Positions 41,060 through 61,569 of a stretch of 64,000 nucleotides of DNA are shown one piece after another (within the stretch, counting starts at the first letter, position 1; each line of letters begins with the position of its first letter). The notes under the pieces are model-generated. The model was given only the letters and a program-made list of their open reading frames with translations. It was not told the origin of the DNA and searched no databases. Source of the DNA: a virus; the IMG/VR virus record IMGVR_UViG_3300025679_000007, positions 7,285-71,284 of that record. The stretch is one strand, 5' to 3'. Position numbers and translations under genes: made by a program.

Positions 41060-42145
41060 TCAGGCCGCCATTTCTCTGTTAATCGCCCCGGAGCGGACCA
41101 GACGACTTAATTCTGTCCGGCAGGCTTTTTTGAATCTCTCCACTTTATCCTGATTTTCGAAATAATACCGAAGAACCGCGATGGCGTCAGTCTGAAGGTT
41201 TTGTCCACGCAGGCGTAGCCACCAATCCCGAGGCAAATCAATCGAGAGACAGTGGGTGAAGATCTCGGCGCAGACATCTTCACGGTCAAGATCGTCGTGA
41301 TCGACAACCAACGCACCCGGAAGGCGTGCGATCTGATCCAGCGCGCGACTGATCCGCTCCATGTTTTTGCGCAATTTCGTCAGGTCATAAACAAAAGCGC
41401 CATTTAGATCGAGCCGCGCCAGCGAGGCCATGACTTGTTCCACCGGACGACGCACCACGACGGCGCGCAAATCGGGGACGTGATGATGAAGAACGCGCCA
41501 GCCTGGCGCCGCGGCGGTTTCCGCCGTTCCCGTTCCCGGTTGGCTGAATAGCGCCGCTATATCCTCGATTCCGCGCATCCTGATCGCGGTCTCGTGGTGA
41601 CACTCCCAGTCGCCGTACGAGAGGAACCGAGACAACCAGAACGTCCGCGATCGGGGCAACCCATACACGATAAAGGGACGCTTAGGCGGAGGATGGCGCC
41701 AGATCGTCATCAACCGATATGCCACACCGTCAACGCCCACCGGCTCCGGCGGACCGAATGTAAATCCCAACGCGGCAAAAAAACGGATCGAGCGCGTGTA
41801 AGAGGCCAGGACGTAGCACCGCAACCGGCCATGGATCACCAGCATCTCGTTTATCTCGCGCCGCGTTTCCCGTAGAAACGCGATCTTCGCCCGCTCGATG
41901 GAAGGTGCCGTAAAGAGCCACGGTGCGCCATCGCTACCAAGGACAGGCGTTTGCACACCCCAGACCGCCGCGACCTCGCCACCGACCAGCGCGACTCGCC
42001 TGACAGGTGAATCGCGATAAAGATCATGCAGCAGATGTCTGGCTTTCAGGCCCCAACCCTCGATTTCTGCACGGTCCATCGGCCGTATAGCACGCGCCAT
42101 GACACGGATATCGGCGAGCGTGGCCGGGCGGATTTCGTAGTTCAC
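41060..42145 (-). CDS. GNAT-like (gp13-type) domain fused to a sulfotransferase-like P-loop domain
   Basis: N: IRP.DRAE..SIRFFAALGF; C: FIVYGLPRSRTFWLSRFL..CHHE; GTGA overlap. Confidence 0.7.
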   Translation of the reverse strand: MNYEIRPATLADIRVMARAIRPMDRAEIEGWGLKARHLLHDLYRDSPVRRVALVGGEVAAVWGVQTPVLGSDGAPWLFTAPSIERAKIAFLRETRREINEMLVIHGRLRCYVLASYTRSIRFFAALGFTFGPPEPVGVDGVAYRLMTIWRHPPPKRPFIVYGLPRSRTFWLSRFLSYGDWECHHETAIRMRGIEDIAALFSQPGTGTAETAAAPGWRVLHHHVPDLRAVVVRRPVEQVMASLARLDLNGAFVYDLTKLRKNMERISRALDQIARLPGALVVDHDDLDREDVCAEIFTHCLSIDLPRDWWLRLRGQNLQTDAIAVLRYYFENQDKVERFKKACRTELSRLVRSGAINREMAA

Positions 42146-45100
42146 CCGGAAATCATCCAATTACCGGGTCCCCGTGGAACCTGCTGCCGTTGTTGCCTCT
42201 GAGAAAACGTCAACTCGGGAAGGTCTCCCTCCAAGTACTCTGGCACCACATCAACGATATTGAGAGGAAGGGGGGCTGTCTGTTGAAAGGCGACCTGCCC
42301 TGGCTTCGCCCACGTCGACATGATGGTGGTGCGAATATCTCCCGTGAAAAGTTCCTGCACGGTGACGCCGCCCGGGGATACATAAGTACTACCCTGGTTT
42401 GGGGTCGTTACCATGCCGCTCCAGGCTGGCGCCAGGGATGGCGGCGACAGCGCCGCGCCGTCGGGCTGATTTGATCCCACCGCGACACTGATACTGGCGT
42501 CGACCCGCGCCGTGAGCGCTGTTACGGTTTTCCTGCGGCCCTGAAGCGTCATTTGTCCGGCTGGATCAAGTCTCGGCAACTGAAGCTGCGGTGTGAACGG
42601 CAATCCGACCTTGACGTTCGAGGCAAAATACGGAAGCGGAATCGTCCCCGTGCCACTGACGACCGTTGGGGGAATCGGCACGCCGTCCGCGATACCCGTG
42701 ACCGTCAGTCCGGCGAGGTGAGTCAAACCGCCAACCGCGTCGATTGGGGCTGTCATGGTCCAACTGCCCGGAGGTTGCTGAATGACCCTTGGGGTCACGT
42801 CAGGAAACAACGCGACCGGAGGCAGGTTCCAGGTTCCATTCACGGAACTCGTGCTGATGTAGCCGCTGATGGTGGCTATCCCACCGCCCATCCGAATGAC
42901 GCTCCCGATATTCCCGGAGGAAAACACCGGGCTCGACGCATTAAAGATCACCACGCCACTGGCTGAATTGGCGTACAGGATGGCATTCGGGGCTGGCATC
43001 GGATTGGACAGGCCGCAATCGACACACCAAGGATCTTCCGTCGCCGCCCAGATGCGGTTATCCATCCTCTCGATGTAATAAGCGGTTCCACCAGCGGCCG
43101 CCACGCACGGTCGCGCGACCGCCACGTAAAGGGCGTCGACAGGCGGTTCCGTTACCGATGCGATAGACAGAAATTGTCCGAACGTGTCATGTCGCGCCCA
43201 GCCATAAACCTCTTGTTCCTTGAGGTAAGTTAATGACAACAAAACGCCGTCGTTCCGAATGAACCACGCAATCTTGTATGGCTCTTCGCACCACGCCGAC
43301 TGCAAAATCTGAAATCCGGCGAACAACTGGCCGGAAAGTTGCGTCAGATCGGACCCGGTATAGATGTTGATCCAGAAATTCCAGGCCAGATCACGAACGA
43401 TTGAACCTTTAGCCTGCACGTAGATGATATCGAAGTTCACCGTGAGCGGCGGTACGATATCGGAACACCCATTGAACGCCTGCTGAGTGGCCTGGATGCT
43501 GGTCGGCGTGATGGGTTGAGGATTGGTCGCGGAACTGCCGGAGCCACCAATCTGCCATGCCCCAAGACCGGTCAGGACCACAAGCCCTCCCGGCATCGGA
43601 ATCATGAACTGGATACCATTGACCTGTTGCGACCATGGCGTCGCGGTGATCGCGTCGTTTGCCGTGATCGGAATTGAAGTGTCGAAATTCAGAAAGTTGC
43701 CGGCCTGCGACATCCATAACGTATCGGGATCGTTGAGGCTCCCCGCGTAAACCCGGCGTTGTTGCGTGTAAGCCGGCACGCTTGGCCACGTTCCCGTTGG
43801 CGGTCCCAGGGTCAAGGTTCCGGTCGCGCCAGTGCCGCCGCCGCTGTCCGTGAAAACCAGCGTATCGGTCCCACTGAAGTTCTGCCCGGCGCTCATGATT
43901 AAAACCGCCTGAATCACCCCGGAGATAATGACCGGACCAGCGATAAAGCCGCTCCCCGTGCCGGACGTGATCGTGACCGTCGTGGCGCTCGTGTAACCGG
44001 CGCCTCCGGATGTTATCGAACAGTACAGCACCGCGCCGCGAGCAAATGGGTCAGTATGCTGTGGCGGGACCGTCGTCACATCCGGGATGGTGTTGCTGTC
44101 GACGAACTGGGTTCCGTAGGACGTTCCGCAGTAGCCGAAAACCGCCCCGGCCGGCACGGGGAGGGCGTCAGTCGGATTCCCCGGATCGGTGTTATAGGAG
44201 GTCGGCGCCTTGTAGATATTGTAGGTCGCGGCGTTCGCCACGGCGCTCCAGCTAACGATGTTGGACCCCGCCGTTGCCGCGATATCAACGCCATTTGTTA
44301 AATTGGCGATCGGCGACGCCACGCTTTCTTCACCGGTCACCACTTCGACGGCGGTGACACAGTACGCATAGGCGGCGGGCAGCGTCGGTGGCGATGTCGC
44401 CGTGCTGGGCTGAACCGTCGCCGAAGCACCGGCGTTCGCCGGCGCCACGATGTTGGCCGCGAATGTGCTTTGCGTGAGCACCCAGTCCGATGCCGTGACC
44501 CTGGCGAGGTCGTAAGGGGGGTATTCGGCGCCATTTACCGTGTTGACGCAGCATAGCGTCATGACATCCGCCGATTGCGTGGTCTTCAAATAGGGCAGGT
44601 CACCCGCCGCCCATGGTGTCGCCAGAGTGTATATCCGGGCGACCGTTCCGCCGGAGGTATAAACCCCGTAGCTTGTCGCGTTGACCGAGTTGCCATTGAG
44701 GTCTTCCAGCGTGAAGTATCCGCTCGAAGCACTGGCCACGATGTAGGTTCCGCCATTAAGTTGCGTCGTTCCGCCGACCCCTTCGATAACGACCCAATCT
44801 CCATTGGCGAAGTTGTTCACCGCCGCGATTCCGCATGGATTGGTGTTCGAGGTGCCGGTGATCGTTTTCGCCGCTTCAACGACGGGCGCCCCATGGGCGT
44901 AAACCCGCATGTAGTTGTCGCCCAATTCCAACGCGTAACCCTGATTGATGTTGAACTGAAACTTAATGAGGCGTGGCGGAGCCTGGGCGTAGGTCTGTCT
45001 GCTGCGGTTGCAAAGCGCGGTCCCGGCCCGGCTGCAATACCCACCTCGGTATGAAACAAACCCGTTCCGCATTGTCGTGGCGGCCACGTGGATCTTCGCC

Positions 45101-45174
45101 AGGTCGACGTGACCGTACAGCGCGGGCGCGATTTCACCGGCCGCGAAGGCGGTCTGTATGGAGAACTGCGGCAT
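42142..45174 (-). CDS. Tail tubular protein B / nozzle
   Basis: FAAGEIAP..R.GT, QSADVM, WPS...QQR, WARHDT; FCCH-like insert. Confidence 0.9.
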   Translation of the reverse strand: MPQFSIQTAFAAGEIAPALYGHVDLAKIHVAATTMRNGFVSYRGGYCSRAGTALCNRSRQTYAQAPPRLIKFQFNINQGYALELGDNYMRVYAHGAPVVEAAKTITGTSNTNPCGIAAVNNFANGDWVVIEGVGGTTQLNGGTYIVASASSGYFTLEDLNGNSVNATSYGVYTSGGTVARIYTLATPWAAGDLPYLKTTQSADVMTLCCVNTVNGAEYPPYDLARVTASDWVLTQSTFAANIVAPANAGASATVQPSTATSPPTLPAAYAYCVTAVEVVTGEESVASPIANLTNGVDIAATAGSNIVSWSAVANAATYNIYKAPTSYNTDPGNPTDALPVPAGAVFGYCGTSYGTQFVDSNTIPDVTTVPPQHTDPFARGAVLYCSITSGGAGYTSATTVTITSGTGSGFIAGPVIISGVIQAVLIMSAGQNFSGTDTLVFTDSGGGTGATGTLTLGPPTGTWPSVPAYTQQRRVYAGSLNDPDTLWMSQAGNFLNFDTSIPITANDAITATPWSQQVNGIQFMIPMPGGLVVLTGLGAWQIGGSGSSATNPQPITPTSIQATQQAFNGCSDIVPPLTVNFDIIYVQAKGSIVRDLAWNFWINIYTGSDLTQLSGQLFAGFQILQSAWCEEPYKIAWFIRNDGVLLSLTYLKEQEVYGWARHDTFGQFLSIASVTEPPVDALYVAVARPCVAAAGGTAYYIERMDNRIWAATEDPWCVDCGLSNPMPAPNAILYANSASGVVIFNASSPVFSSGNIGSVIRMGGGIATISGYISTSSVNGTWNLPPVALFPDVTPRVIQQPPGSWTMTAPIDAVGGLTHLAGLTVTGIADGVPIPPTVVSGTGTIPLPYFASNVKVGLPFTPQLQLPRLDPAGQMTLQGRRKTVTALTARVDASISVAVGSNQPDGAALSPPSLAPAWSGMVTTPNQGSTYVSPGGVTVQELFTGDIRTTIMSTWAKPGQVAFQQTAPLPLNIVDVVPEYLEGDLPELTFSQRQQRQQVPRGPGNWMISG

Positions 45175-45214
45175 GACTGTGTGGAGTGGCCTTTATCGTC
45201 GAGTTTTACTTGAC

Positions 45215-46132
45215 CTAATAGGCGATCCCGTCTCCGAACATACATGCGTCGTGCCCGTAACCGAGCACGCCGGCCCCGTTCCAATCCAGGCCGCCGGCGC
45301 GGCTACGGACCCGCAGCCAATCCGGCACATGGTCTACCGATGTCCATCCCTCGTTTCCGTCACTGACCCGCGCCTGATCCAGCGCGGCCTTGCAGATCGC
45401 GATCTGTTCATTCCGGATCGAGGTCGCCGCCTTCCGGTCTGTCACGAGCGGCATCGCGAAGCACGACGCGAGAAGCGAGACAAACGCCTGACCAAACAGC
45501 GGGTCCCATTGATCCACGTAGGTTATCAGCGACGTGTAAACGAGGTCGGCGCGGGATTGGTTCGTCAGGATAACAGTCTGACTGGCGAGCCCCTGTCCCA
45601 TCGTGGTCGCTGTATCGGGGATTTGATCCCATGTGGTCGGTGCGCCGATCAGGGCCGGGATCGTGTCCGTGCCAACCAGAAAGCGGGCCGGAACCTGCCG
45701 CCCGAACGGCTGTTGGTTAAGGCCGCTCATCAACGGGTTAGACGGCAATGAGATGTTCCCGGTCGGCACATTGGAACCGGCATTGTTAAACGAGGTCGGC
45801 ACGAACCGCGCCTTCACGCAGTCGATCGGCCACGCGTATTCGTACGTCCACGGGATCATGCCCGGCGTGCCGCTACCGACGAACGGTGGATTGATCCCCT
45901 CGGCGATCTGCTGTTGCGAGGTTTGCCCCGTGGCGTCCTGAAGCAGAACCATCGAGACGCGACGCCGCGCGAAATTCCAATGCGCCGACCGGAACAGTTG
46001 GCGCAGCGCCGGGCCATAATGACGCCGCGCGACCATCGCCTCCTTGGCACCATCGTTAAGATCGACGATCGAATTCGGATTGCCGATCAGGTCAAGCGCC
46101 CTGTTGCAGATATCCTCTGGGCGCGTTGGCAT
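45215..46132 (-). CDS. Tail tubular A/adaptor paralogue 5 (canonical type)
   Basis: DICNRAL..WNFARR..YAWPIDC..WDPLF..PDWLRVR. Confidence 0.85.
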   Translation of the reverse strand: MPTRPEDICNRALDLIGNPNSIVDLNDGAKEAMVARRHYGPALRQLFRSAHWNFARRRVSMVLLQDATGQTSQQQIAEGINPPFVGSGTPGMIPWTYEYAWPIDCVKARFVPTSFNNAGSNVPTGNISLPSNPLMSGLNQQPFGRQVPARFLVGTDTIPALIGAPTTWDQIPDTATTMGQGLASQTVILTNQSRADLVYTSLITYVDQWDPLFGQAFVSLLASCFAMPLVTDRKAATSIRNEQIAICKAALDQARVSDGNEGWTSVDHVPDWLRVRSRAGGLDWNGAGVLGYGHDACMFGDGIAY

Positions 46133-46136
46133 GGCG

Positions 46137-46742
46137 TTACCCTCTGTTGTCGGCGACGCTCACGACGCTGCCGGCCGCTTCGGCCATGCGCGCCTTGACC
46201 GCCTCCGGGTCGGATCGCAGCGCCTCCTGGAACCGCAACGCGAGGCGTTCGATCAAGGCTTCGATGAACCGTGGCTCCGGCGACCATTGAGCGGGATCGT
46301 CGATCAGAGCAGTAAACGATGCGACGGCCCCGGCCAAATTACTCAGGACGACTTTCTGTCCCAGGGCTGAATCGTTGGCGATGGTGAAGATGTTCGGCAC
46401 CGGGTCCCACTCCGGAAGCGCCACCGGCGTCGGCCGGACCGATCGAATTCTCAGGCATCCAGAAGGGTAGGCATACTCGTAAATCCACGGCAGCAAGGGG
46501 TAGATCGAGGTCCACGGCGTCAACCCGTATCCCCCTACCGGCGCCGTCTTCAATAGCTTGAGGCCGATCTCCTGTCTGGCGAACTGCCAGTCCTCCGACT
46601 CCATGAGTTCGTCGCGGGCCTGAACATAAATTTCAATCGCGGCCCGCGACGCGACGGACCCTTCGTAAATGGAACCGATCGGGGTTGGATAACCAATCCG
46701 GCGGAGCGCCTTGTTGCAAATGTCCTCAACCGCGATCGCCAT
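46137..46742 (-). CDS. Tail tubular A/adaptor paralogue 4
   Basis: DICNKAL..WQFARQ..YAYPSGC. Confidence 0.8.
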   Translation of the reverse strand: MAIAVEDICNKALRRIGYPTPIGSIYEGSVASRAAIEIYVQARDELMESEDWQFARQEIGLKLLKTAPVGGYGLTPWTSIYPLLPWIYEYAYPSGCLRIRSVRPTPVALPEWDPVPNIFTIANDSALGQKVVLSNLAGAVASFTALIDDPAQWSPEPRFIEALIERLALRFQEALRSDPEAVKARMAEAAGSVVSVADNRG

Positions 46743-47314
46743 CAGGAATCCTTGCCCACATCGATGCCGGCGATTTTAAGAGCCGTGGCGTATCCGTCAG
46801 GGCCGCCCTTGCTCTGGCCGTGCTCGTCCTTGGAGGACAACAGCGGCGCCAAGGACGCACTGAGGTATTGCACGACCGTTTCAGTGAATAATGGGTTCCA
46901 GAAATCCTCGGTTACGCCGCTTGTCGTGTAGACCAGGCTGGCGGAAGCGGTATTCGTCCAGATCACTGTCGCCATGACGCCACCGATGACATTCGCGCCA
47001 ACGTCCCATCGTGTCGGAATTGGGCTGTTCAGCGCGCCGTTGTTCGGGACCACCATGCGCACCTTCAGGCAATCGGCGGGATAGACGTACTCAAAATCCC
47101 ATCCAAACTGGGCGCCGTTGCCGGACAACGCGAGAGTCGCCGCCTTGCGTGAGAATTCGTGGTCCGAAGCCCGAAGCAGCGCCCAAACCGTTTGCGTGTA
47201 TTGCCGCAACGCGATCTGGGATTCCCGGCTGCCGTCTTGTGGGTCGCCGATCGTGATTTCACAGCCGGCCAGGTTAAGCGCCCGATTGATGATGTCAGCG
47301 GGATAAACGGTCAT
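46742..47314 (-). CDS. Tail tubular A/adaptor paralogue 3
   Basis: DIINRAL..HEFSRK..YVYPADC..WNPLF. Confidence 0.8.
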   Translation of the reverse strand: MTVYPADIINRALNLAGCEITIGDPQDGSRESQIALRQYTQTVWALLRASDHEFSRKAATLALSGNGAQFGWDFEYVYPADCLKVRMVVPNNGALNSPIPTRWDVGANVIGGVMATVIWTNTASASLVYTTSGVTEDFWNPLFTETVVQYLSASLAPLLSSKDEHGQSKGGPDGYATALKIAGIDVGKDS

Positions 47315-47922
47315 CAGCCGCGCCTCATGTCGGCGATCATCGTGGCGCCTTCAGCATCCCGATCAGCGGTCTGAACCGGATTCTGCTCCTGGGCGAATTG
47401 CCGCTCAAATTCCACGGCCAACGCCTCTATCAAGGCATCGAGAAAGCCAGCGTCATTCCATGCCGCGGGGTTCGTGACGCGGCCGGTAATGGTGGCCTGG
47501 GCGTTCAGCAGGTTGGTCAACACCACCAAAGACCCTGACGCCGTATCGCTCCCGACCACGAAGATGTTCGGAAACACGTTGCGCTCCGGAAGCGCCACCG
47601 GCGTCGGCCGGACCGATCGAACCATGATGCAGGACATTGGATAGGCATACTCATACCCCCAGGGGAGCGGTGGATTGTTCACGGCGCTCCATGGCGTCGA
47701 GCCATACCCTCCGGCCGGCGCCGTCTTCAGCGCAGCGCCCAGGCTTACCGTCTGCCTGGCGAAACCCCAGTCCCGCTCGCGCAACACCGCGTCTCTGATC
47801 TGGCCGTAATAGTCGAGCGCGATCCGGGAGGCCCGCGACCCTTCGTAAATGGAACCGATCGGGGTTGGATACTTCACGCGGCGAAGCGCGGCGTTCAGAA
47901 TGTCTTCGACCGCCAGCACCAT
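47314..47922 (-). CDS. Tail tubular A/adaptor paralogue 2
   Basis: DILNAAL..WGFARQ..YAYPMSC; ATG at 47922. Confidence 0.8.
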   Translation of the reverse strand: MVLAVEDILNAALRRVKYPTPIGSIYEGSRASRIALDYYGQIRDAVLRERDWGFARQTVSLGAALKTAPAGGYGSTPWSAVNNPPLPWGYEYAYPMSCIMVRSVRPTPVALPERNVFPNIFVVGSDTASGSLVVLTNLLNAQATITGRVTNPAAWNDAGFLDALIEALAVEFERQFAQEQNPVQTADRDAEGATMIADMRRG

Positions 47923-47936
47923 GACGACGCGACCCC

Positions 47937-48554
47937 TTAGTTGTGCAGTGTGTCGCTGGTGATCACGAGGGTGCCGCCGATGGCGTTCACGGTGCCGGCG
48001 TTCCACTCGACCGAAAGCTCACCGCTTCCCGGCGCGACCGTCACCCCAGAGGAAAATGTCGCGACCGGACCACCCTGCCAGTCGGCCATGAGCGTGCCGC
48101 TGTTGACCTGAATGCCAGCACCGTGCGCGATGACGGCGCCCGCGTTCCACTGCGCCTGCAACGTGTCACTGTTGATCGCCAGGCCGGTGTTCACCGCCAC
48201 CACAAGGCCACCCTGCCAGTATGCCTCCAGCGTGCCGCCGGCCAGAAGCGTCAGGCCGGCCCCGATGCTGGAAATGATCGCGCCGGATGCCTGAAGCGAT
48301 CCGCCCGCATTGAACGAAAGACCACCCGCCAAGGGAATGGTCGTGGCGACAGCGGCGACGGTTCCTGGATTGCCAAGCAATGTCGCCGCGAGTTGTGACT
48401 TCGCGGTAAGCGTGCCGCCAAGCTTAACGGGACCCTCGACAAAAAACGGGTTCGGACCAACAACGATCAAAGCGCCGAGTTGTGGCGCCCCGCGCGGGAT
48501 GCGGAGCGCTTCATTTCCCGGTTGTGGATAGACCGGTAATTTGCCGGTCGGCAT
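47937..48554 (-). CDS. Short fibre protein with about 22-aa repeats
   Basis: Repeated G(L/I)..(S/G)GTL.A.W(Q/N)(G/A)G.V units. Confidence 0.65.
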   Translation of the reverse strand: MPTGKLPVYPQPGNEALRIPRGAPQLGALIVVGPNPFFVEGPVKLGGTLTAKSQLAATLLGNPGTVAAVATTIPLAGGLSFNAGGSLQASGAIISSIGAGLTLLAGGTLEAYWQGGLVVAVNTGLAINSDTLQAQWNAGAVIAHGAGIQVNSGTLMADWQGGPVATFSSGVTVAPGSGELSVEWNAGTVNAIGGTLVITSDTLHN

Positions 48555-49384
48555 CAGCTATCGCGATCCGGAGCATCCGCGCTGATTTTCCCGGACGTAT
48601 CCAGCATTTCCCTTCCGAGATCGGGCCGCCCCGCAACGGGAATGGTTACCATCGAACCAATGAACCGAACCGCCATCTCCGTGAAAATGCTGTCCCAGTC
48701 ATACTCCGTGATGAGGGATGTGGAATAGATCAGCGAAGCGCCCACCACATCCGCCCAGATCACTTGCTGGGTGGTGAACACGACTTCGGTTATGTCGATA
48801 AAAAATCCGGTGCCGATCCCTGGTTGCGTCCCACCCGTCGCCGTGGCGGTGATCGCCGGCCCATATCCAGACCCATTCGATGTCAGCGTGTAGGTGCCCA
48901 CCGCCCCGGCACTCAACACGGTGTCGATGACGTAAGTCGCGACCGCGCCAGTGCCACCAAGAATCGTGCCGGTGTCGCCCACCCCGTAGCCGGTGCCGTT
49001 GTAGCCGACAAATGAACCCGCTATGATCCCGGTCACGGTTACGTCACCGACATCCCACCGCACCGGCTGCGGATCGTTCTGATCCCACGTCGCCGGGGCG
49101 ATCTGGCGAACCCGTATGCAGTCGTCCGGGTAAGCGTATTCGTAGGCCCATTGGAGCGGCGGTGTGTTCCCGGTCTGGATCATGGGAATGCTTCTGCGGC
49201 AAAACTCGAAATCCTGATTGCGCAAAAGCATCTGGACCGCGCCAACATACAAAGTGGCGCAGTAGATTCCTGCGGCGGACCCATCGAAGTTGGTTGCCAC
49301 GGTTCCGCTGGCGAGGGGTGGCCCCTGCGCGATTTGCGTGAGCGCCCGATTAACAACTTCGAGAGCGGTCAGGCCGAATGGCAT
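48554..49384 (-). CDS. Tail tubular A/adaptor paralogue 1 with Gly/Thr-rich insert
   Basis: EVVNRAL..FEFCRR..YAYPDDC..WDSIF. Confidence 0.8.
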   Translation of the reverse strand: MPFGLTALEVVNRALTQIAQGPPLASGTVATNFDGSAAGIYCATLYVGAVQMLLRNQDFEFCRRSIPMIQTGNTPPLQWAYEYAYPDDCIRVRQIAPATWDQNDPQPVRWDVGDVTVTGIIAGSFVGYNGTGYGVGDTGTILGGTGAVATYVIDTVLSAGAVGTYTLTSNGSGYGPAITATATGGTQPGIGTGFFIDITEVVFTTQQVIWADVVGASLIYSTSLITEYDWDSIFTEMAVRFIGSMVTIPVAGRPDLGREMLDTSGKISADAPDRDS

Positions 49385-49390
49385 TTGAGG

Positions 49391-49804
49391 TTACTGGACC
49401 TTGCCGGACTTCGCGTTTGGATCGATGTCATCGATGACTTCCATGAGAAGCCAACCGCTAAACCCGGCCTTCCCCATCAGCCGCTCGATGACGCCCAGTT
49501 CAGTGCCATCGACCACCGCCGCCGGATCGTCGCGGAGTTTCTTCGCGAGCACGGCGCGGTCATATCTCTGCTGCCATCCAAGCGATTTTTCATCCTCATA
49601 GGTCCCGTTCAACGCGATGGCCACGGCACCACCCACCGTGAGGGGCGGGCATTTCGAGCAATCCTTGCTATCCGCCGCCATGGCGGTCGGGTCTGGCACC
49701 ACCGCGCCCTGTGGATTGGTGATGATTTTCGTCATGTCGGCCGGATGACTTTGTGCCAAGGCGATGCTCGGAAGAAGCAATAAGGCAAGCAGCACGCGTT
49801 TCAT
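49391..49804 (-). CDS. Secreted protein (fibre-chaperone position)
   Basis: MKRVLLALLLLPSIALA|Q; DCSKC; ATGA overlap. Confidence 0.7.
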   Translation of the reverse strand: MKRVLLALLLLPSIALAQSHPADMTKIITNPQGAVVPDPTAMAADSKDCSKCPPLTVGGAVAIALNGTYEDEKSLGWQQRYDRAVLAKKLRDDPAAVVDGTELGVIERLMGKAGFSGWLLMEVIDDIDPNAKSGKVQ

Positions 49805-51126
49805 GGGCAAACCTTTACCGTTTCTGAGTCGTCCCACAGCGTTCCGGTCGGTTGACTGGAACAAGAGGTCACGAGCGCGGCCGCCTGGACCGAGCCGGAC
49901 AACCGAATGACGCCGGTGCCTTTGGGTAGGAGTGTCATGCCGATATTCGGATCGGATGGGCCGCCGGTTTCCAGTGTCGGGTCGGTTCCCGAGGGCTGCG
50001 CTTGCATGATGAAGGTGTTCTGCGTCCCGCTCGTCAGCCCCTGCACCCGAAAGGTTGGATTTCCGCCGGCATCAAGAAACTGAACGTCGCCGCCCGGTCC
50101 GGTGGATGCCCGGATGGAGTCTGTGTGCACCGTATTGTTGCCATCGACCCGAAATCCGCTCGGTCCCTTCAGGAAGGCGTCCGAGAAGGTGGCCGCCGAG
50201 AAGTCGATGCCATCGGCGGCGGTGCCTGAATTCGAGAGGATCAAAGTGCCGCCGACGGAAACAGGCAGACCAGTGTTCGGGGGAAGCGCGCCAAAGAAGA
50301 TGCCGGCGTTGTTCCAGGTCCAGCCGGCGGGGCGGATGTTCAACGCGGTCTCGAACACCGAGGCATGAGAGGCGCTGAGATCGACGATCGACATACCCTC
50401 GCCCCACTTGAAGTTGGCGCCGGGGGATGTCTCCACATCCATCTCGAACCCGTCGATTTCGTTCCAGTAGATCGGCTGGCCGTGATTGTCGTTGGCGGAC
50501 AGGCGCATGAATCCAGCGTAGGCGAACGCGTCGCCCTGCGCCGCGCTGGGCGTGCCACCGGCATTCGCCGCGATGGTCAAACCGACCGAGAGGGCCCCCT
50601 CAAACAGATTGGTGGTTCCCCCGATGGCATCGGTCATGATGGTATCGATGAACATGCCATTGTGTGATCCGGTGGCCGACCCGCCGCCGTAATGATCGAT
50701 CAAAGTCAACCCGTTCACGCCCCCAACGCTCGTGCCGGTCATGCTCTCATTGACCTGGATCAGGTTCAGCGGAATTTCACACCCTGCGCTGTCGTTATAG
50801 CAGCCGGTGGAAAGGCCGGAGTATTGCTGGGTCAGGTAAATCCCGACGTTGTTCGTTCCAGGGTAACCGCCGGCCCATGCGACATTGGTTGATTGAACCA
50901 AGGTCGCCGTCATGTTGAGGTTTGTCACGGTCTGACCTGGGCTGAACGGCAACAGCGTTTTGATGAAGGCCAGGGAAATCCCGGAATCGCCCACATAGCC
51001 GTTGCGCAACCATTGCGGCACATTGCCAGGCGCGACCGGCCCGACCTGAAGCACGCTTTGAGCGAACGCCACCGGCGTTAAAAAAGAAAAAGCCGCCCCG
51101 AAGGCGGCTCCTAAGAAAAAACGCAC
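49801..51126 (-). CDS. Secreted fibre/spike-like protein
   Basis: MRFFLGAAFGAAFSFLTPVAFA|Q; C-terminal L.PKGTG and CSSQPTGTLW..VKVCP. Confidence 0.7.
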   Translation of the reverse strand: MRFFLGAAFGAAFSFLTPVAFAQSVLQVGPVAPGNVPQWLRNGYVGDSGISLAFIKTLLPFSPGQTVTNLNMTATLVQSTNVAWAGGYPGTNNVGIYLTQQYSGLSTGCYNDSAGCEIPLNLIQVNESMTGTSVGGVNGLTLIDHYGGGSATGSHNGMFIDTIMTDAIGGTTNLFEGALSVGLTIAANAGGTPSAAQGDAFAYAGFMRLSANDNHGQPIYWNEIDGFEMDVETSPGANFKWGEGMSIVDLSASHASVFETALNIRPAGWTWNNAGIFFGALPPNTGLPVSVGGTLILSNSGTAADGIDFSAATFSDAFLKGPSGFRVDGNNTVHTDSIRASTGPGGDVQFLDAGGNPTFRVQGLTSGTQNTFIMQAQPSGTDPTLETGGPSDPNIGMTLLPKGTGVIRLSGSVQAAALVTSCSSQPTGTLWDDSETVKVCP

Positions 51127-51568: not shown

Positions 51569-52048
51569 TCAGGCGGCCGGGATCAACGGCTCATGGCCTG
51601 GGGGGCCTTCTGGACCCACCGGACCAGCCGGGCCAACCTCTCCGGCGGGACCAACTGGGCCTGCCGGACCTTGCGGGCCTGGATCACCCTGGGGTCCAGT
51701 CTCGCCGGGAGGGCCGGGAGGGCCAACGACGGTGACGGGCGGCTTGTCGTTCTCGCCGCGGAGAAACGTCAGAATGTCCTGAGCATTTCCGATGATGTTG
51801 TCGCCACCCGCCTGAACGGCGAACTCGACCGCCTGGGCCCGCAACTGATCGATATCGGTCAATACAGCCTCCTGTGTCTGGGTGGGGTAAACGCGCGCGG
51901 CGTTTTGATCGGCCACATCATGGCTGACCGCTTCGTGCATGCCAGGAACAACCTGATTGGGGTGGAGATACAGGATCGTGCCGGCGATGTGGAACACAGT
52001 ATCGCGCAACAGTCGGAAGGGGCGCGGGGTGGAGCGAAAATCTGGCAT
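51569..52048 (-). CDS. Collagen-like (Gly-X-Y) protein
   Basis: [43 protein letters not shown]. Confidence 0.8.
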
Positions 52049-53613: not shown

Positions 53614-54090
53614 TCAGATCAGGTCCCACGTCCCGGTCGGCTGATTGAAAATGTAGCAATAGGTCGTGTTCGCGGTCATGGCGGTGGCGACGTTGGTGAT
53701 GGTCTGGCCACTCCCGGCCGCCACCTGGATCGTCACGGCGGTCTGGGTCTGCGTCGAACGCATGCAGTTCCGTTGGCCATTGCCTGGATTGGGCGCGAGC
53801 GTGAACGTTCCCGTGGCGAGCGTGCCGACCGGCGCGATCAAATACCAACTCTGCCCATTGGCAAACGCCAGCGAAAACGCCGTGAGCGGCACGGCCTTCA
53901 CATAACCCTGCGGCCCGCTGATCTGGGCGGCGGTGGCGAACGTGCTGGCGGCGGAAGGCGCCCCGCCAACAAAATCCTGGAACAGATCGGTCGCACCAAC
54001 CGATGTGACCTGCGGCAACGTGGGTGCCTGCGCCCATGCGCCACCGATACCGGCGAGCGCCAGGACGGCGCCCAACAATAGTTTTTTCAT
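53614..54090 (-). CDS. Secreted beta-rich protein (head-decoration region)
   Basis: MKKLLLGAVLALAGIGGAWA|Q; GGAG SD; Cys pair. Confidence 0.75.
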   Translation of the reverse strand: MKKLLLGAVLALAGIGGAWAQAPTLPQVTSVGATDLFQDFVGGAPSAASTFATAAQISGPQGYVKAVPLTAFSLAFANGQSWYLIAPVGTLATGTFTLAPNPGNGQRNCMRSTQTQTAVTIQVAAGSGQTITNVATAMTANTTYCYIFNQPTGTWDLI

Positions 54091-54106: not shown

Positions 54107-54625
54107 TCAGTAAAGCGGCAAGCAGTAAACGCGCACGTTCGCGGTCGCGGCGGCGCCCTGCGGCGTTGTGAGCGACAGATACAAGGTCGTTACCTTGCTG
54201 GTCTGGGTCGGCCCCTGAAAGCGCGTAGTCGTTCCCGCCGCCGCGAGCGTGGCCAACATGGCGCCTCCGGTCGTGTTGACCGCGCCGGTGGTCAGGGGCG
54301 AGTACGCCTGGGTATTCGCCACGATGGCGATCCCACCCTTCGAGGCGGCGCTGTAGAAGCCGCCCGCCGCCGTGGTCAGAGACACACTCGGATCGCTGAC
54401 CACGATGGAGTCGACCATGTATGTCGCGGTCGGGACCGCGATGGCTATGGCCTGGTCAGAAGTGGAATTGAAATTGGCACCCTTCAGCCAGCCGCACTCG
54501 ATCCGGCCCGGCGCATAGGCCTGCCAGGGCGTGTTGGGGAACTGGAACTGGGTGGATTGGGCGTGCAGCGGCGACGCGGCGATAAGAGCCAGTGCGGCGG
54601 AGGCGGTCGCGAGAAGGATTTTCAT
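54107..54625 (-). CDS. Secreted beta-rich protein (head-decoration region)
   Basis: MKILLATASAALALIAASPLHA|Q; GGAG SD; Cys pair. Confidence 0.75.
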   Translation of the reverse strand: MKILLATASAALALIAASPLHAQSTQFQFPNTPWQAYAPGRIECGWLKGANFNSTSDQAIAIAVPTATYMVDSIVVSDPSVSLTTAAGGFYSAASKGGIAIVANTQAYSPLTTGAVNTTGGAMLATLAAAGTTTRFQGPTQTSKVTTLYLSLTTPQGAAATANVRVYCLPLY

Positions 54626-56394: not shown

Positions 56395-57450
56395 TCAGAC
56401 GACGCGAGCTTCTGTATTGAGCAGCTGGTCGGATACTCTCACGGGAAAACCGCGCCAGTTATCGGTAACAATTCCCGCATAATCAGCCAACTGTAGAAGT
56501 ACGTTCCTCCCTCGCATGGCCTGCACGTCCATGAAATGGCGAACGGTCCGGTTCGTGATCCACACCGGCCGAATGCTCGGCGTCGCGTCGGTTGGCGCGT
56601 CCGTCTTGGTGATACCGGATGCTTTCTTGCCAAGGGCGGGCGGAAAGTACGCGATCTCGGCCATGCCGCCGAACAGATCGTAGGCGTTCGGACCGGCGAG
56701 GCCGGCATTGGTCACGTCGATGTTCGCGATGCGCGCCGCCTGGCGCCAGTCCTCGGGAACAAGGCCCATCTGGCAGCGGAACCATGACGTGAAGGCTTCG
56801 AACCGGTTGCCCACCGCGTCAAACGCCGGCGTCACGTCGCCCTTGTCTTCCATGGTCAGCCCGACCTTGGAACCGCGGGGGTAGATGCCGTAAATGGTGC
56901 GTTCGCCGAGGCACAACAGCCAGAGGGAGGCGTTGGAGGTGCCGGTTCCGCCCGCGTCGACCACATTGGCGCCGTTCTGCGCACCGCCGGCTGAAATGTC
57001 GGAATTAAGCGAGTTGTAGAACCCGGACAGCCCCATGAACTCCTGCGGCGTGGCCAGGGTATTGCCGTAGAAGCAGGTCTGTTCCAGCGTCTGCCCCATG
57101 CCTTCGAGAAACGCCGCGTCTTCGTTCATGCGGAACTGCTCGATGTCGCCACTGTCCTCCGCGAGGGTGCGATCGACCTGGGAATAATCCACCAGTTCAC
57201 CGACACCGATACGGAATTTCGCCGTGGTCGACTTGCTGTAGGGCGTGCCCTGGTTGTAACCGCGCCACGAACCGGCGGGGATCGAGGTGCGGAACACGCC
57301 TTCATGTGCGCCAACCTCGTTCGCCTCGCGATAGGGCAGGTCGTCATACAGCGCGATCGACTGCGACAGCATCTCGGCGATATGGACCTGCTTGCCATTC
57401 ACGGTGCGACTTGCGAGATCAAGAATCGTAGGCCACTGACCTGTAGCGAT
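56395..57450 (-). CDS. Major capsid protein (BPP-1-like), apparent ATC start
   Basis: IAEMLSQ..WRGYNQG..DWRQAARIANID..RGFPVRVSDQLLNTE; GGAGGCTAAA-ATC-GCT-ACA in frame. Confidence 0.88.
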   Translation of the reverse strand: MATGQWPTILDLASRTVNGKQVHIAEMLSQSIALYDDLPYREANEVGAHEGVFRTSIPAGSWRGYNQGTPYSKSTTAKFRIGVGELVDYSQVDRTLAEDSGDIEQFRMNEDAAFLEGMGQTLEQTCFYGNTLATPQEFMGLSGFYNSLNSDISAGGAQNGANVVDAGGTGTSNASLWLLCLGERTIYGIYPRGSKVGLTMEDKGDVTPAFDAVGNRFEAFTSWFRCQMGLVPEDWRQAARIANIDVTNAGLAGPNAYDLFGGMAEIAYFPPALGKKASGITKTDAPTDATPSIRPVWITNRTVRHFMDVQAMRGRNVLLQLADYAGIVTDNWRGFPVRVSDQLLNTEARVV

Positions 57451-57499: not shown

Positions 57500-58345
57500 T
57501 TAACGCCCGGCCGCCTTACGCGACGTGGGATGGTCGTACATCGACGCGGACCTGGATTGTTTCGCGTTCCCACCACGATCCGGAACTGGTCTGGCTGGAA
57601 TGGGCGGGGCGGCGGGCTCGTCGAATATCCGCGCCGCCGTGTGCAGCAACCGCATCATCGCGGGATGGTCGCCAGCGCCCGTGACGCGCATGAAATCATC
57701 GAATTCGGCGCGGTGCGCTTCCGGAACCAATAGGTCTCGCATCCGCGCCGCCGCCATGAGCGCGGTGTCGAACCCGGCGCCTCCAAGGGTTGGGTCTGAC
57801 CTGATCTTATCGACCCAGCCACGCCTCGTTTCGGCGAAATCACTGTGCTGTTTGGCGAATACCGCGTCCTGAAACTGCTTCAGCGTACCCGCGTGCAGAT
57901 CGACCAGCTTTTGCGCGGTTTCCTGATCGACTTTGGCGGGCCCAACGATTTCCTGGAACGCGGCTATCCTGGCTTCGTCGACCGGCACGCCATCAGGCAG
58001 CTTGAACGGCTCGTATTTGACCGCAGCGGTGACTTCGGCGGTCGTCTTTTCCGCGTCAGCCGCCGGTTTTTCGGTCGACTTCGGCTTTTCTTCCGCCTTT
58101 CCGGCGGTTTCCAGCAGGCTCGGTGCGTCGGTGTGAAGCGGAGTTGGCTTTTCTGTCTCGGTAACCGGATCGGGCGCTGGCGCCTCAACAACCGCCGGTG
58201 CCTCTGCTTCCGCCACCACTTCCGGCGGCGGCATCTGAACCGCGACGCTCTCAGGTGTATGGATCGTTGCTTCGGCGATCGGCGGCGTCGCGGGCACGAC
58301 TACGGGCGCCTCGGGGGCGGGTGCTACAGGCTCTTCGGGTGGCAT
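57500..58345 (-). CDS. Capsid scaffolding protein
   Basis: P/E/A-rich N-terminus, AQKLVDL, GAGDHP, C-terminal MYD; upstream of capsid gene. Confidence 0.82.
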   Translation of the reverse strand: MPPEEPVAPAPEAPVVVPATPPIAEATIHTPESVAVQMPPPEVVAEAEAPAVVEAPAPDPVTETEKPTPLHTDAPSLLETAGKAEEKPKSTEKPAADAEKTTAEVTAAVKYEPFKLPDGVPVDEARIAAFQEIVGPAKVDQETAQKLVDLHAGTLKQFQDAVFAKQHSDFAETRRGWVDKIRSDPTLGGAGFDTALMAAARMRDLLVPEAHRAEFDDFMRVTGAGDHPAMMRLLHTAARIFDEPAAPPIPARPVPDRGGNAKQSRSASMYDHPTSRKAAGR

Positions 58346-59742: not shown

Positions 59743-61569
59743 TCAACTCCGCATCACGCCCTGCGACGGCGATCCCAGCAACGCGCCCAGCGCGCCTGCC
59801 TGAGGATCGGTCTTGCTCAACTGCTGCGCCGCCGTCACCGCCGCCGGCGCGATCTGCGCCGCCTGCGCCACCTGCGCCTGCTTGGCCTTCGCCTCCCGCA
59901 ACTGCTTGACCATTGAGGCGCCCCTGATCACTTTCGACGTGACCTGACCGTTTTCCGCCGTCAAACGCAGCGCTTCGTCCAGGTCAATCACGTCGAGCGG
60001 GTCCGGCGCACCCGATTCCTTGGCGCCCTGGCTCATTTGAATCGCGGAAGCCACCACGGCGGCGATCCCCGTGTTGGCCGAAGCGGCCTGGGCGATCTTC
60101 ATCATTGAGATGCAATCAACCTTCAGCGGCATACCCATGAGCGAGGGCGGGCGTGGCTTCAACAGGCGCCGACGGGCGCAGATATCAAGCGCGCGCATCA
60201 CGGCCGGCGCGGCAACCTCGGTGGTGAACAGGTTCACGAACGGCCCCAGCGATTGCAACCGCTCCAGGTCGCGCTTTGTCAGTTCCAGTTCGTTTCTCGG
60301 TTGCACCCCGGCCATCTGGGTGATCGCCATGAACAGGTTGACGAAAAAGCATTCCTTGATCCGAAGTTGAATTTCCTTGATGTCCTCGATCATGGGCGGC
60401 AACGCGGCGGGACTGACCTCGAACAGCGGCCAGAACCCCTTCTTGCCGCCTTCCGTGCTGGTGTAGGTGATGTTGCCCGGCACGATCGAACTCGGTTCGT
60501 TTTTCATCTCCGGATTGGCGCCCATTGGCGGGCGCACCAACTTTTCGATGAATTCGCCCTTGCGGCGGGTTTCCATCTGTAGTTGCTTCGTGTCGCCCAG
60601 GCAGTCCATCCCTGGCGAGCGGCCATACGCATCGTTCGAGACCACCGACCAGCGCGCCGCGAAGAACGGGCAGCCATTGAACCCGCGCCGGCTCAATTCG
60701 GCTTCGGTCTGCTGCCCTTTGAGCCAGTAGACCTCGCGCCAGGTGAAATGCCCCGGCACCACGTTGATTTTCGCTGAACTCTGCTTGTTGCGCGACATGG
60801 CGAAGTTCGGCTCGATCGCGTGCGCGACGATCATTTCCATCTCAAGCGAGCCGCCGCCCTGTTCCCACCGGCTGCGCACTTGCTCGGGGCAGGCGTCCAG
60901 CCCGAACATATCCACGATCTGTTGGATGGTCAGAACGAATTCCCGATATAGCGTATCGACGCTCAGACGTGATCCGACCGCGAGATAATACTCCCCGCTG
61001 CACGGCAGATAGCAGCGCAACACGTCCTCTGCGTCCTCGTACATGATGATCGGCGCCGTGCCGAACGTGGCGACATCCTGAAACGATTGCGCCATGATGT
61101 TATAAAAGTTCGACTGCGCGAACACGTAATAGAGAATGCGCTCGGCGTCTTCGAGCCACGCCTTGGCGGCGTCGTCCAGTTCAATCCAGTCAATCGCGAT
61201 GCCGAGCTCGAACCATGGCCGGGTCGGCGGAGTCAGGCCGGACCACATGCCAGCGGCGCAGGTTTGCATCGCCAGCGTCGCTGTGCTGTCAACGATCGCG
61301 CTGTTAAGCGGAACGCCCTTTTGCATCGTGTTGGCGACGACCAGCCAATGATACCGCCGCGGCAGAATGAACTCGGCGCAACTGGCCCAATAGGTCCACC
61401 AACTGAAACGCCAGTCCCGCAGTGCCGTGAGGCGGCTTTCCAGTTGCGGATAGATGATATCCCAGTCCTTGCCCTCCGGCTGGTCGCTTGGTAGCGATGG
61501 CGGCTGCATAGATAGCAGTTGCGGGCCCGCCATTTCGTAATGGGCGACGCTGGTTTGAGCTTCGGACAT
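59743..61569 (-). CDS. Portal (head-tail connector)
   Basis: DSTA..AAGM..PWF, SNFY, ARW..YGRSPG; T7/BPP-1 connector type. Confidence 0.93.
   Translation of the reverse strand: MSEAQTSVAHYEMAGPQLLSMQPPSLPSDQPEGKDWDIIYPQLESRLTALRDWRFSWWTYWASCAEFILPRRYHWLVVANTMQKGVPLNSAIVDSTATLAMQTCAAGMWSGLTPPTRPWFELGIAIDWIELDDAAKAWLEDAERILYYVFAQSNFYNIMAQSFQDVATFGTAPIIMYEDAEDVLRCYLPCSGEYYLAVGSRLSVDTLYREFVLTIQQIVDMFGLDACPEQVRSRWEQGGGSLEMEMIVAHAIEPNFAMSRNKQSSAKINVVPGHFTWREVYWLKGQQTEAELSRRGFNGCPFFAARWSVVSNDAYGRSPGMDCLGDTKQLQMETRRKGEFIEKLVRPPMGANPEMKNEPSSIVPGNITYTSTEGGKKGFWPLFEVSPAALPPMIEDIKEIQLRIKECFFVNLFMAITQMAGVQPRNELELTKRDLERLQSLGPFVNLFTTEVAAPAVMRALDICARRRLLKPRPPSLMGMPLKVDCISMMKIAQAASANTGIAAVVASAIQMSQGAKESGAPDPLDVIDLDEALRLTAENGQVTSKVIRGASMVKQLREAKAKQAQVAQAAQIAPAAVTAAQQLSKTDPQAGALGALLGSPSQGVMRS

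Follow-up and report, generated by a model that had tools for sequence, protein, structure and literature searches.

The window analyzed here is a 64,000-nucleotide stretch of viral DNA comprising bases 7285-71284 of IMG/VR record IMGVR_UViG_3300025679_000007, a 71,284-base virus record rated complete by CheckV. The record is a metagenome-derived virus contig of class "linear" in which no end repeats were found. A podovirus-type structural module lies on the minus strand of the window and includes, at 45215-49384, an array of genes for the adaptor that sits between portal and tail nozzle ("tail tubular A"). A sequence-only reading, made from the letters and their open reading frames (ORFs), had described five tandem adaptor paralogues at this position. 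All five ORFs were confirmed on the minus strand within these limits, and each matches phrog_394, annotated as "tail protein" (E-values of 8.9e-20 to 6e-30). The array is not strictly tandem, however, as a sixth gene, here termed gene X, separates copies 1 and 2 and was missed by that reading. In the order of transcription, the features of the locus are as follows.

48554..49384, minus strand: copy 1 (A' type), 276 amino acids (aa), C-terminus DS, first transcribed; phrog_394, 8.9e-20
48776..49033, minus strand: insert of copy 1, ~85 residues (about 118-203), beta-rich, in the loop after RWDVG
47937..48554, minus strand: gene X, 205 aa, repeat-rich (W.AG.V....GL.INSGTL units); its ATG overlaps the copy 1 stop
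47314..47922, minus strand: copy 2 (B' type), 202 aa, C-terminus RG; phrog_394, 1.2e-19
46742..47314, minus strand: copy 3 (A type), 190 aa, C-terminus DS; phrog_394, 4.1e-22
46137..46742, minus strand: copy 4 (B type), 201 aa, C-terminus RG; phrog_394, 3.1e-22
45215..46132, minus strand: copy 5 (C type), 305 aa, nozzle-proximal; phrog_394 over the full length, 6e-30
42142..45174, minus strand: nozzle (tail tubular B type), 1010 aa; phrog_376, 5.7e-146; PDB 8ck1_A "Tail Nozzle", 1.7e-89

The six genes of the array are coupled, in the order copy 1, gene X, and copies 2, 3, 4, and 5. Given that TGATG stop/start overlaps occur at three junctions (copy 1/X, copy 2/copy 3, and copy 3/copy 4) and that promoter-like and terminator-like sites in the array are no commoner than in shuffled sequence, we read the array as one translationally coupled block. 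For copy 2, the likely start is the ATG at 47922, which has AAGGGG upstream, rather than the GTG at 48006 assigned by the ORF finder. Copy 5 is adjacent to the nozzle gene, as the sequence-only reading had it, and is separated from it by 40 nt; copies 1-4 are further upstream. The GC content at third codon positions (GC3) is 0.71-0.76 in the array, inside the range of the adjacent structural genes. The RNA fold at the X/copy 2 junction is unremarkable (z 0.72), and a scan for inverted repeats did not indicate an invertible segment.

By sequence, the family to which the five copies belong is the portal-to-nozzle adaptor of phages BPP-1, epsilon15, and Carin1. A search of the window's own record recovers the same five phrog_394 genes, with copy 1 returned as two pieces. 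Profiles were built for the three groups into which the copies fall (A, copies 1 and 3; B, copies 2 and 4; C, copy 5). These match the Carin1 connector (8ck1_E) over nearly its full length at E-values of 6.1e-15, 1.5e-23, and 7e-22, respectively, with positions 7-198 of 204 covered in the case of B. The three profiles also match orf17 from the portal-tail complex of Legionella phage LME-1 (9efk). No Pfam match was obtained at E≤0.1 for gene X or for the five copies, PF17212 ("Tube") included for the latter; PF17212 does match P0044, a related fused chain described below, at 3.8e-13. Ring proteins of crAss-like phages and the adaptor of Ralstonia phage GP4 (searched at E≤1) showed no sequence-level match to the A, B, and C profiles.

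Structure prediction establishes the fold of T7 gp11 for the modeled copies 1 and 5, from which the same fold is expected to follow by homology for copies 2-4, as the sequence-only reading had anticipated. The AlphaFold2 (AF2) model of copy 5 has a mean predicted local distance difference test (pLDDT) score of 64.5 and that of copy 1 a score of 74.6, both of which are moderate. By sequence, copy 5 matches 8ck1_E at 5.5e-11. Its model aligns with 8ck1_E (VIA) at Z 16.4 over 190 of 206 residues (3.0 Å) and with LME-1 9efk at Z 13.6. The T7 gp11 entries follow at Z 11.7 (6r21_M, 171 residues aligned, 4.7 Å) and Z 11.3 (7box_N), with a Foldseek probability of 1.00 and E 1.4e-3 for T7 gp11, and the tail tubular protein A of KP32 is at Z 11.6. 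More distant are the adaptors of Pa223 (Z 9.0) and GP4 (8jov_2, Z 8.1) and the crAss001 rings (7qog_B, 7qoj_F, and 7qoi_FS; Z 6.0-6.2, Foldseek E 1.5e-2 to 2.1e-1), where Z 8 was taken as the level of caution. For the copy 1 model, Foldseek returned 8ck1_E at 3.2e-9 and T7 gp11 (7box_N) at 1.4e-3 with a probability of 1.00.

A five-way alignment of the copies contains 19 invariant columns, including N12, A14, and L15 (N.AL), F61 and R63 (F.R), and E82, Y83, P86, and C89 (EY..P..C). The motifs and C-termini quoted in the sequence-only reading are all present: RWDVG and a DS end are common to copies 1 and 3, while YPTPIGSIYEGS, RSVRPTPVALPE, and an RG end are common to copies 2 and 4. The copies diverge by 48-68% at the protein level. 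Identity of the other copies to copy 1 is 25-33% (~32% for copy 3), and copies 2 and 4 are 52% identical. Copies 1-4 retain every invariant column of their own group; copy 2, for example, keeps all 16 columns invariant across 18 B sequences. Copy 3, the most divergent copy with a terminal branch of 0.98-1.23, departs at none of the 12 columns that are invariant among the A sequences aligned. Copy 4 is 57% identical to the B protein of locus L010 and has the shortest terminal branch among the four A/B copies (0.35), and copy 5 bears two loop inserts and a C-terminal extension. The insert of copy 1 is missing from 17 other A-type sequences in the alignment and is poorly modeled, as strands with pLDDT 47-57. 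It weakly resembles residues 340-411 of the nozzle, at 37% over a stretch of 78 residues (E 3e-4 as a single comparison). The corresponding part of the fold carries inserts also in the B protein of locus L007 and, as judged by eye from their sequences, in the foreign B-like proteins P0015 and P0016.

Beyond the window, we examined how many adaptor genes accompany related nozzles. With the nozzle as anchor, 68 loci from viral and metagenome contigs were reduced to 42 distinct loci, in 24 of which the sequence extends 4.5 kb or more beyond the nozzle on its upstream side. Three adaptor genes are present in 14 of these 24, always of ~190, ~205, and ~300 aa in A-B-C order, and a single gene of ~270 aa is present in the other 10; two, four, or five copies occur in none. 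The groups have their own C-termini, ending in DS (A), G (B), and SAY (C). An A-B-C trio also resides in a prophage of Rhizobium sp. BK313, whose capsid protein is 70% and nozzle ~52% identical to those of the window. Within a 401-genome sample of the order to which BK313 belongs, 51 genomes have a phrog_394 match, of which BK313 alone has a tandem array and none has five copies. Among deposited phages (50,697 records), a single matching place was found in 47 of 47 with copy 5 as query, in 56 of 56 with copy 4, and in 64 of 64 with copy 3. The top deposited tblastn match of copy 5 is BPP-1 Bbp14 at 28% identity, the nearest deposited nozzle is 36% identical, and 42142-49384 has no DNA-level match to deposited phages. 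The single places, together with a nearest nozzle at 36%, indicate that the trio clade is without a deposited phage genome in that collection.

Two unusual adaptor loci were also inspected. The apparent 1630-aa fusion of a C adaptor to the nozzle at L050:1085-5974, from a Hyphomicrobiales metagenome-assembled genome, was rejected as an artefact of a run of N. At L103:1441-3702 (MW202473.1, "tail tubular protein a"), a 753-aa protein has its adaptor domain at 521-727, preceded by an unexplained N-terminal extension of ~520 aa.

A tree of 69 sequences, from which crAss ring proteins were left out, resolves the adaptors into four groups, each lying on one side of a supported branch: A (97), B (98), C (98), and S (99), the type found in relatives with one copy. 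A further branch, with support of 90, unites six single adaptors from deposited phages (BPP-1, Carin1, epsilon15, HU1, Baldr, and MW202473). The deep order among the groups is poorly supported (68). Because A, B, C, and S each occupy a supported branch of their own, the paralogues must be old and separately maintained. As they cluster with each other and with those adaptors, multiplication appears to have arisen within the BPP-1/Carin1-type adaptor family.

Within this framework, copy 5 is of type C, copies 2 and 4 are of type B, and copies 1 and 3 are of type A (copy 3 within the A group at 97). Copies 2 and 4 are sisters (Shimodaira-Hasegawa-like approximate likelihood ratio test, 92.9). Copy 1 is placed beside the A proteins of the two trio phages nearest to the window, L010 and L053 (95). 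The approximately unbiased test does not reject a tree in which copies 1 and 3 form a clade (p 0.515). At the DNA level, copies 2 and 4 share repeats at a spacing of 1174-1180 nt, the length of one A+B unit. The simplest history of the quintet would be that this lineage duplicated its A-B pair in tandem and that gain of the copy 1 insert and insertion of gene X followed. Terminal branches are longer for copy 2 (0.70) than for copy 4 (0.35) and longer for copy 3 (0.98) than for copy 1 (0.75). Copies 2 and 3 are the inner copies, each of which would have gained new neighbors in a stack that follows gene order; their longer branches fit stacking without proving it.

Gene X matches no Pfam or PHROG family. 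Four homologues were found in 5.8 billion clusters, the best of which is 45% identical at 100% query coverage. Gene X as a single query found no viral loci; an alignment of five homologous sequences found larger, uncharacterized viral proteins that share its repeats, as stop-to-stop ORFs of 296-1411 aa in 19 of 21 other viral loci. An adaptor was found near the X-repeat ORFs in none of those viral loci, which leaves X as an adaptor-bound fiber without contextual support. Structure-atlas leads (adenoviral shaft, beta-helix) fell below the tool's own bar. From the repeat pattern and these weak leads, gene X is a putative short fiber or collar protein. The block of copy 1, X, and copy 2 was found in no relative.

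Fusion of adaptor units into one chain offers a second view of how these proteins may work together. A search of 1.84 billion representatives with the B-group profile retrieved 193 proteins at E≤1e-30, and of the 150 top-ranking ones 23 exceed 500 aa and have at least three matched stretches. Of 28 such proteins fetched, 25 include 2 to 7 tandem adaptor units of ~165-190 aa each. Multi-unit chains include the L106 example, P0014, P0030, P0034, P0061, P0062, P0114, and others; for the six-unit P0030, no viral locus was found. Some chains recur, on as many as 8 contigs drawn from three sources. The clearest genomic context is that of L106:6016-7848, on a 46.4-kb IMG/VR contig, where a 610-aa three-unit chain seen on 7-8 contigs ends 48 nt before a phrog_376 nozzle (1.2e-151) and the same internal-protein families as in the window lie downstream of that nozzle. 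Fused units imply equal stoichiometry and physical proximity, and chains of five or seven units cannot evenly fill one 12-membered ring, so that a stack is their natural arrangement; we infer that such chains favor stacks. Fused chains that reproduce the A-B-C order were sought, and a clear case is confined to P0010, in which a B unit (153.6 bits) precedes a C unit (137.7 bits), with a weak case in P0063. The remaining chains have their own internal duplications, with units 36-67% identical within a chain. Two further chains, P0044 (1530 aa) and P0150 (1407 aa), have four adaptor units followed by ~650-800 C-terminal residues with a pectate-lyase-like match (PF12708; 4.6e-12 and 3.4e-10), and each looks like a neck protein with its own depolymerase or tailspike-type domain. 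We found no phage paper describing multi-unit adaptor chains.

Stacked adaptor rings have structural precedent, and the sequence-only reading was right to recall that crAss-like phages stack several paralogous ones. The report on crAss001 describes five stacked dodecameric rings encoded by four paralogous ring genes and spanning ~23 nm, in which R1 and R2 dock fiber hubs and the lumen stores cargo; it presents multiple ring genes as a defining crassvirus feature (PMC10172136). In phi24B, two paralogous dodecameric adaptor rings of one fold are reported at 18% identity, with GP4 described as similar and the number of rings given as one to three (10.64898/2026.04.10.717836). For Pa223, two rings of one protein are reported to extend the lumen by 120 Å (10.1101/2025.06.11.659172).

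Given this precedent, the conserved trio in relatives, and the natural multi-unit fusions, our preferred reading is a multi-ring neck: five diverged adaptors of gp11 fold, each forming a ring of its own, stacked coaxially in gene order. We assign this reading a probability of roughly 0.6. Each copy would assemble into its own twelve-membered ring, in the order portal, copy 1, copy 2, copy 3, copy 4, copy 5, nozzle, which would give an unusually long neck of a design detailed so far only for crAss-like gut phages. The three conserved paralogues with distinct C-termini suggest three different interfaces. The channel for DNA and ejection proteins would be lengthened to ~23-30 nm, a figure extrapolated from crAss001 (five rings, 23 nm) and Pa223 (two rings, 12 nm). 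For this uncultured clade of 60-70-kb phages, a three-ring A-B-C set would be ancestral, and its A-B pair would have been duplicated in tandem in this genome. The portal-proximal copy would then have gained its surface insert, with the small fiber-like gene X placed directly after it, and X could plausibly form a collar or an additional appendage tier. The elongated multi-ring tail proposed by the sequence-only reading thus survives as the best reading, with the stacking itself inferred. Its further proposal of several tiers of fiber attachment has so far gained hints only, namely the X repeats, the copy 1 insert in an outward loop, and the adaptor-pectate-lyase chains. For the large appendage set presumed by that reading, the four large downstream ORFs gave no match in Pfam or PHROGs. 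The comparison with solved structures covered all of these but the 358-aa ORF; of the three, one has a weak 65-residue match to the SU10 tail fiber (4.4e-4) and the other two have no solved relative.

Several observations weigh against the stacked neck. The quintet is known from one metagenomic record (0 of 24 loci and 0 of 51 genomes), and the presence of its five products in the virion is a prediction. The majority of fused chains defy assignment to the types A, B, and C, so that they represent a parallel, recurrent trend and a complex different from that of the window. The similarity of the copy 5 model to the crAss001 rings lies under the caution level, and both AF2 models are of moderate confidence. 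The free tree joins copy 1 to the A proteins of L010 and L053 and leaves out copy 3, so that a single tandem duplication stands only as "not rejected"; the long branch of copy 3 could equally reflect relaxed constraint or a new non-ring role. A complex prediction for copies 3 and 4 scored 0.48 against 0.00 for the best of three controls, with runs agreeing in at least 92% of contacts and a partner pLDDT of at least 81. Of 80 solved complexes, 58 reach the mark that it passed, as do 2 of 110 mismatched pairs; at scores of 0.60 or lower, the passes comprise only 7 of those 80 complexes together with both mismatches. This pass is weak and may reflect memory of solved homo-oligomeric adaptor rings. 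As geometry was not returned, the prediction cannot separate stacking from side-by-side packing.

Mixed rings are an alternative that we regard as unlikely. Here, about three rings would form, as in relatives, with A' and B' co-assembling with A and B, for example as alternating six plus six. Such mixing would lower the symmetry of a ring from twelve-fold to six-fold and provide six docking sites for X through the copy 1 insert, in keeping with the confinement of the insert to copy 1 and with the hexameric nozzle of solved relatives. Nozzle-proximal adaptors are also described in two alternating conformations (phi24B gp62 and crAss001 R5), entry 8ck1 lists two connector chains, and the copy 3/copy 4 score points weakly the same way. 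The published accounts of crAss001, phi24B, and Pa223 nevertheless have each ring built of one protein, and identities of ~32% (copies 1 and 3) and ~52% (copies 2 and 4) represent a large divergence for one shared ring interface. Fused chains of five or seven units would likewise not suit one 12-membered ring.

It is also improbable that only copy 5, or perhaps an A-B-C core, makes the neck and that copies 1 and 2, together with X, serve outside the channel in an accessory role, for example as a collar, a fiber-docking piece, or an assembly factor. In favor of this reading, the copy 1-X-copy 2 block is absent from the relatives, X is fiber-like by its repeats, and adaptor units are found fused to a pectate-lyase-like domain of receptor-binding type (P0044 and P0150). 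Copies 1 and 2, however, retain all invariant core residues of A and B as well as the full fold, the tree places copy 1 beside the A proteins of the nearest trio phages, and the structural matches gave no solved example of the fold outside a coaxial ring. Finally, it is very improbable that the additional A-B pair has no structural consequence, whether as a neutral duplication in decay or as a join of two related phages made in metagenome assembly: the quintet does come from one "linear" metagenomic contig, but its frames are intact, its TGATG junctions are coupled, its GC3 is in the range of its neighbors, its divergence with all group columns kept fits neither a collapsed strain variant nor a pseudogene, and a chimera would not give an in-phase A-B-A-B-C order with a 1177-nt unit.

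The stacked-ring reading places the array between two other components of the module, the portal and the nozzle. The remaining head genes of the module are listed here.

61867-63339, minus strand: terminase
59743..61569, minus strand: portal as read here, 608 aa; phrog_332, 2.3e-108
57500-58345, minus strand: protease-like gene
56395-57402, minus strand: major capsid protein

The portal assignment, the presumed upstream partner of the first ring, was read from size and from placement after the terminase; its family is labeled "head-tail adaptor" in PHROGs. In the nozzle, additional small domains occur at residues 120-179 and ~340-455, and an E1_FCCH-like match is present at 1.7e-5, below the Pfam cut-off. 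A G-rich beta region of the nozzle is common with "baseplate wedge" and "head closure" PHROGs and weakly resembles the copy 1 insert. The module also holds four internal virion/ejection proteins. The largest, at 30080-37891 (minus strand), has 2603 aa and matches phrog_10691 (8e-63), phrog_6651 "internal virion protein" (4.7e-29), and other PHROGs; this is very large for a podophage ejection protein, and its size may be related to the long neck. At 41060-42160 (minus strand), the C-terminal half added to an internal virion protein (phrog_308, residues 8-154) is hydrolase-like (phrog_10855, 2.7e-6). In the interval from the capsid gene to the array, four minus-strand ORFs (49391-49864, 49801-51126, 53614-54090, and 54107-54625) have signal-peptide-like hydrophobic N-termini ending in AQ or AQS. 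None of the four matches Pfam, and the two compared with PHROGs (49391-49864 and 49801-51126) match none there. The presence of secreted-looking proteins within a virion structural module is unexplained. In the same interval, a 159-aa ORF at 51569-52048 (minus strand) carries a collagen triple-helix repeat (PF01391, 2e-8, above the cut-off).

The adaptor array is a real feature that is well conserved in its three-gene form, with the five-gene form unique so far. Multi-ring barrels in crassviruses and one to three rings in other podophages are already described in the reports cited above. What is new is a conserved three-gene set in the separate BPP-1/epsilon15/Carin1-type lineage, with five genes in one genome, and, from other lineages, fused poly-adaptor chains, one of which occupies the same genomic slot. 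Should the copies stack, podophage neck length would be a tunable, modular character, with bearing on the crossing of capsules and thick envelopes and on the site at which ejection proteins are stored. On a broader and more tentative view, ring multiplication would be a general, repeatedly evolved route to an adjustable podophage neck without a tail-tube protein, represented here by a neck of ~25-30 nm with fiber X at its top ring, a crAss-like barrel that arose independently of Crassvirales. Were this true, two routes would exist: separate paralogous genes, three across the clade and five here, or chains of up to seven units, some with depolymerase-like ends. The occurrence of the trio in a prophage of a cultured Rhizobium isolate opens the idea to testing.

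Our literature search for fused, stacked, or paralogous adaptor arrays returned none beyond crAss001, phi24B/GP4, and Pa223; the supplements of these papers may list ring-gene counts for other phages. The closest relatives by family are Carin1 gp37 (8ck1 chain E), BPP-1 Bbp14, and epsilon15 gp11, which share phrog_394 membership and fold with the window and whose gene directly precedes a homologous nozzle, as does copy 5. Those phages have one copy in 40-42 kb, in contrast to five copies in a 71-kb genome. The earlier label "BPP-1-like" holds only for a distant homology of the tail module: BPP-1 (Rauchvirus type) has 42.5 kb against the 71.3-kb record, Bbp14 is 28% identical to copy 5, and the nearest deposited nozzle is 36% identical. 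A search of the 71,284-base record for reverse transcriptase (PF00078) at E≤0.01 was negative, under a control that found the family in 3 of 14 named genomes, so that no BPP-1-type diversity-generating element was found.

By architecture, phi24B (gp64/gp62) and Ralstonia phage GP4 are described with two paralogous dodecameric rings between portal and nozzle in which gene order equals ring order, as proposed here. Their genomes are larger than those of T7-like phages. They have two rings, compared with three or five paralogue genes in this clade, and GP4 reaches Z 8.1 to copy 5. In Pa223, two coaxial gp63 rings are reported to lengthen the channel by 120 Å, much like the proposed neck, but both rings come from one gene through two C-terminal conformations, without paralogues. 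The report on crAss001 describes the same general plan as the window, in which diverged two-domain paralogues (helices plus a beta-sandwich) are encoded before a T7-nozzle-like hexamer. Its rings R1-R5 are given as gp43, gp40, gp35, and gp34 twice, a five-ring count that would equal that of the window; four genes thus supply five rings there, whereas one gene per ring would hold here. The structural similarity is weak (Z 6.0-6.2) and there is no sequence match. Several paralogous ring genes before the nozzle or muzzle are a crAss trait that is present here as well, with five in the window and three in 14 of 24 loci. In how it would work, the array is most like the crAss001 barrel, but it is a member of the Bbp14/Carin1 adaptor family and not of the crAss rings.

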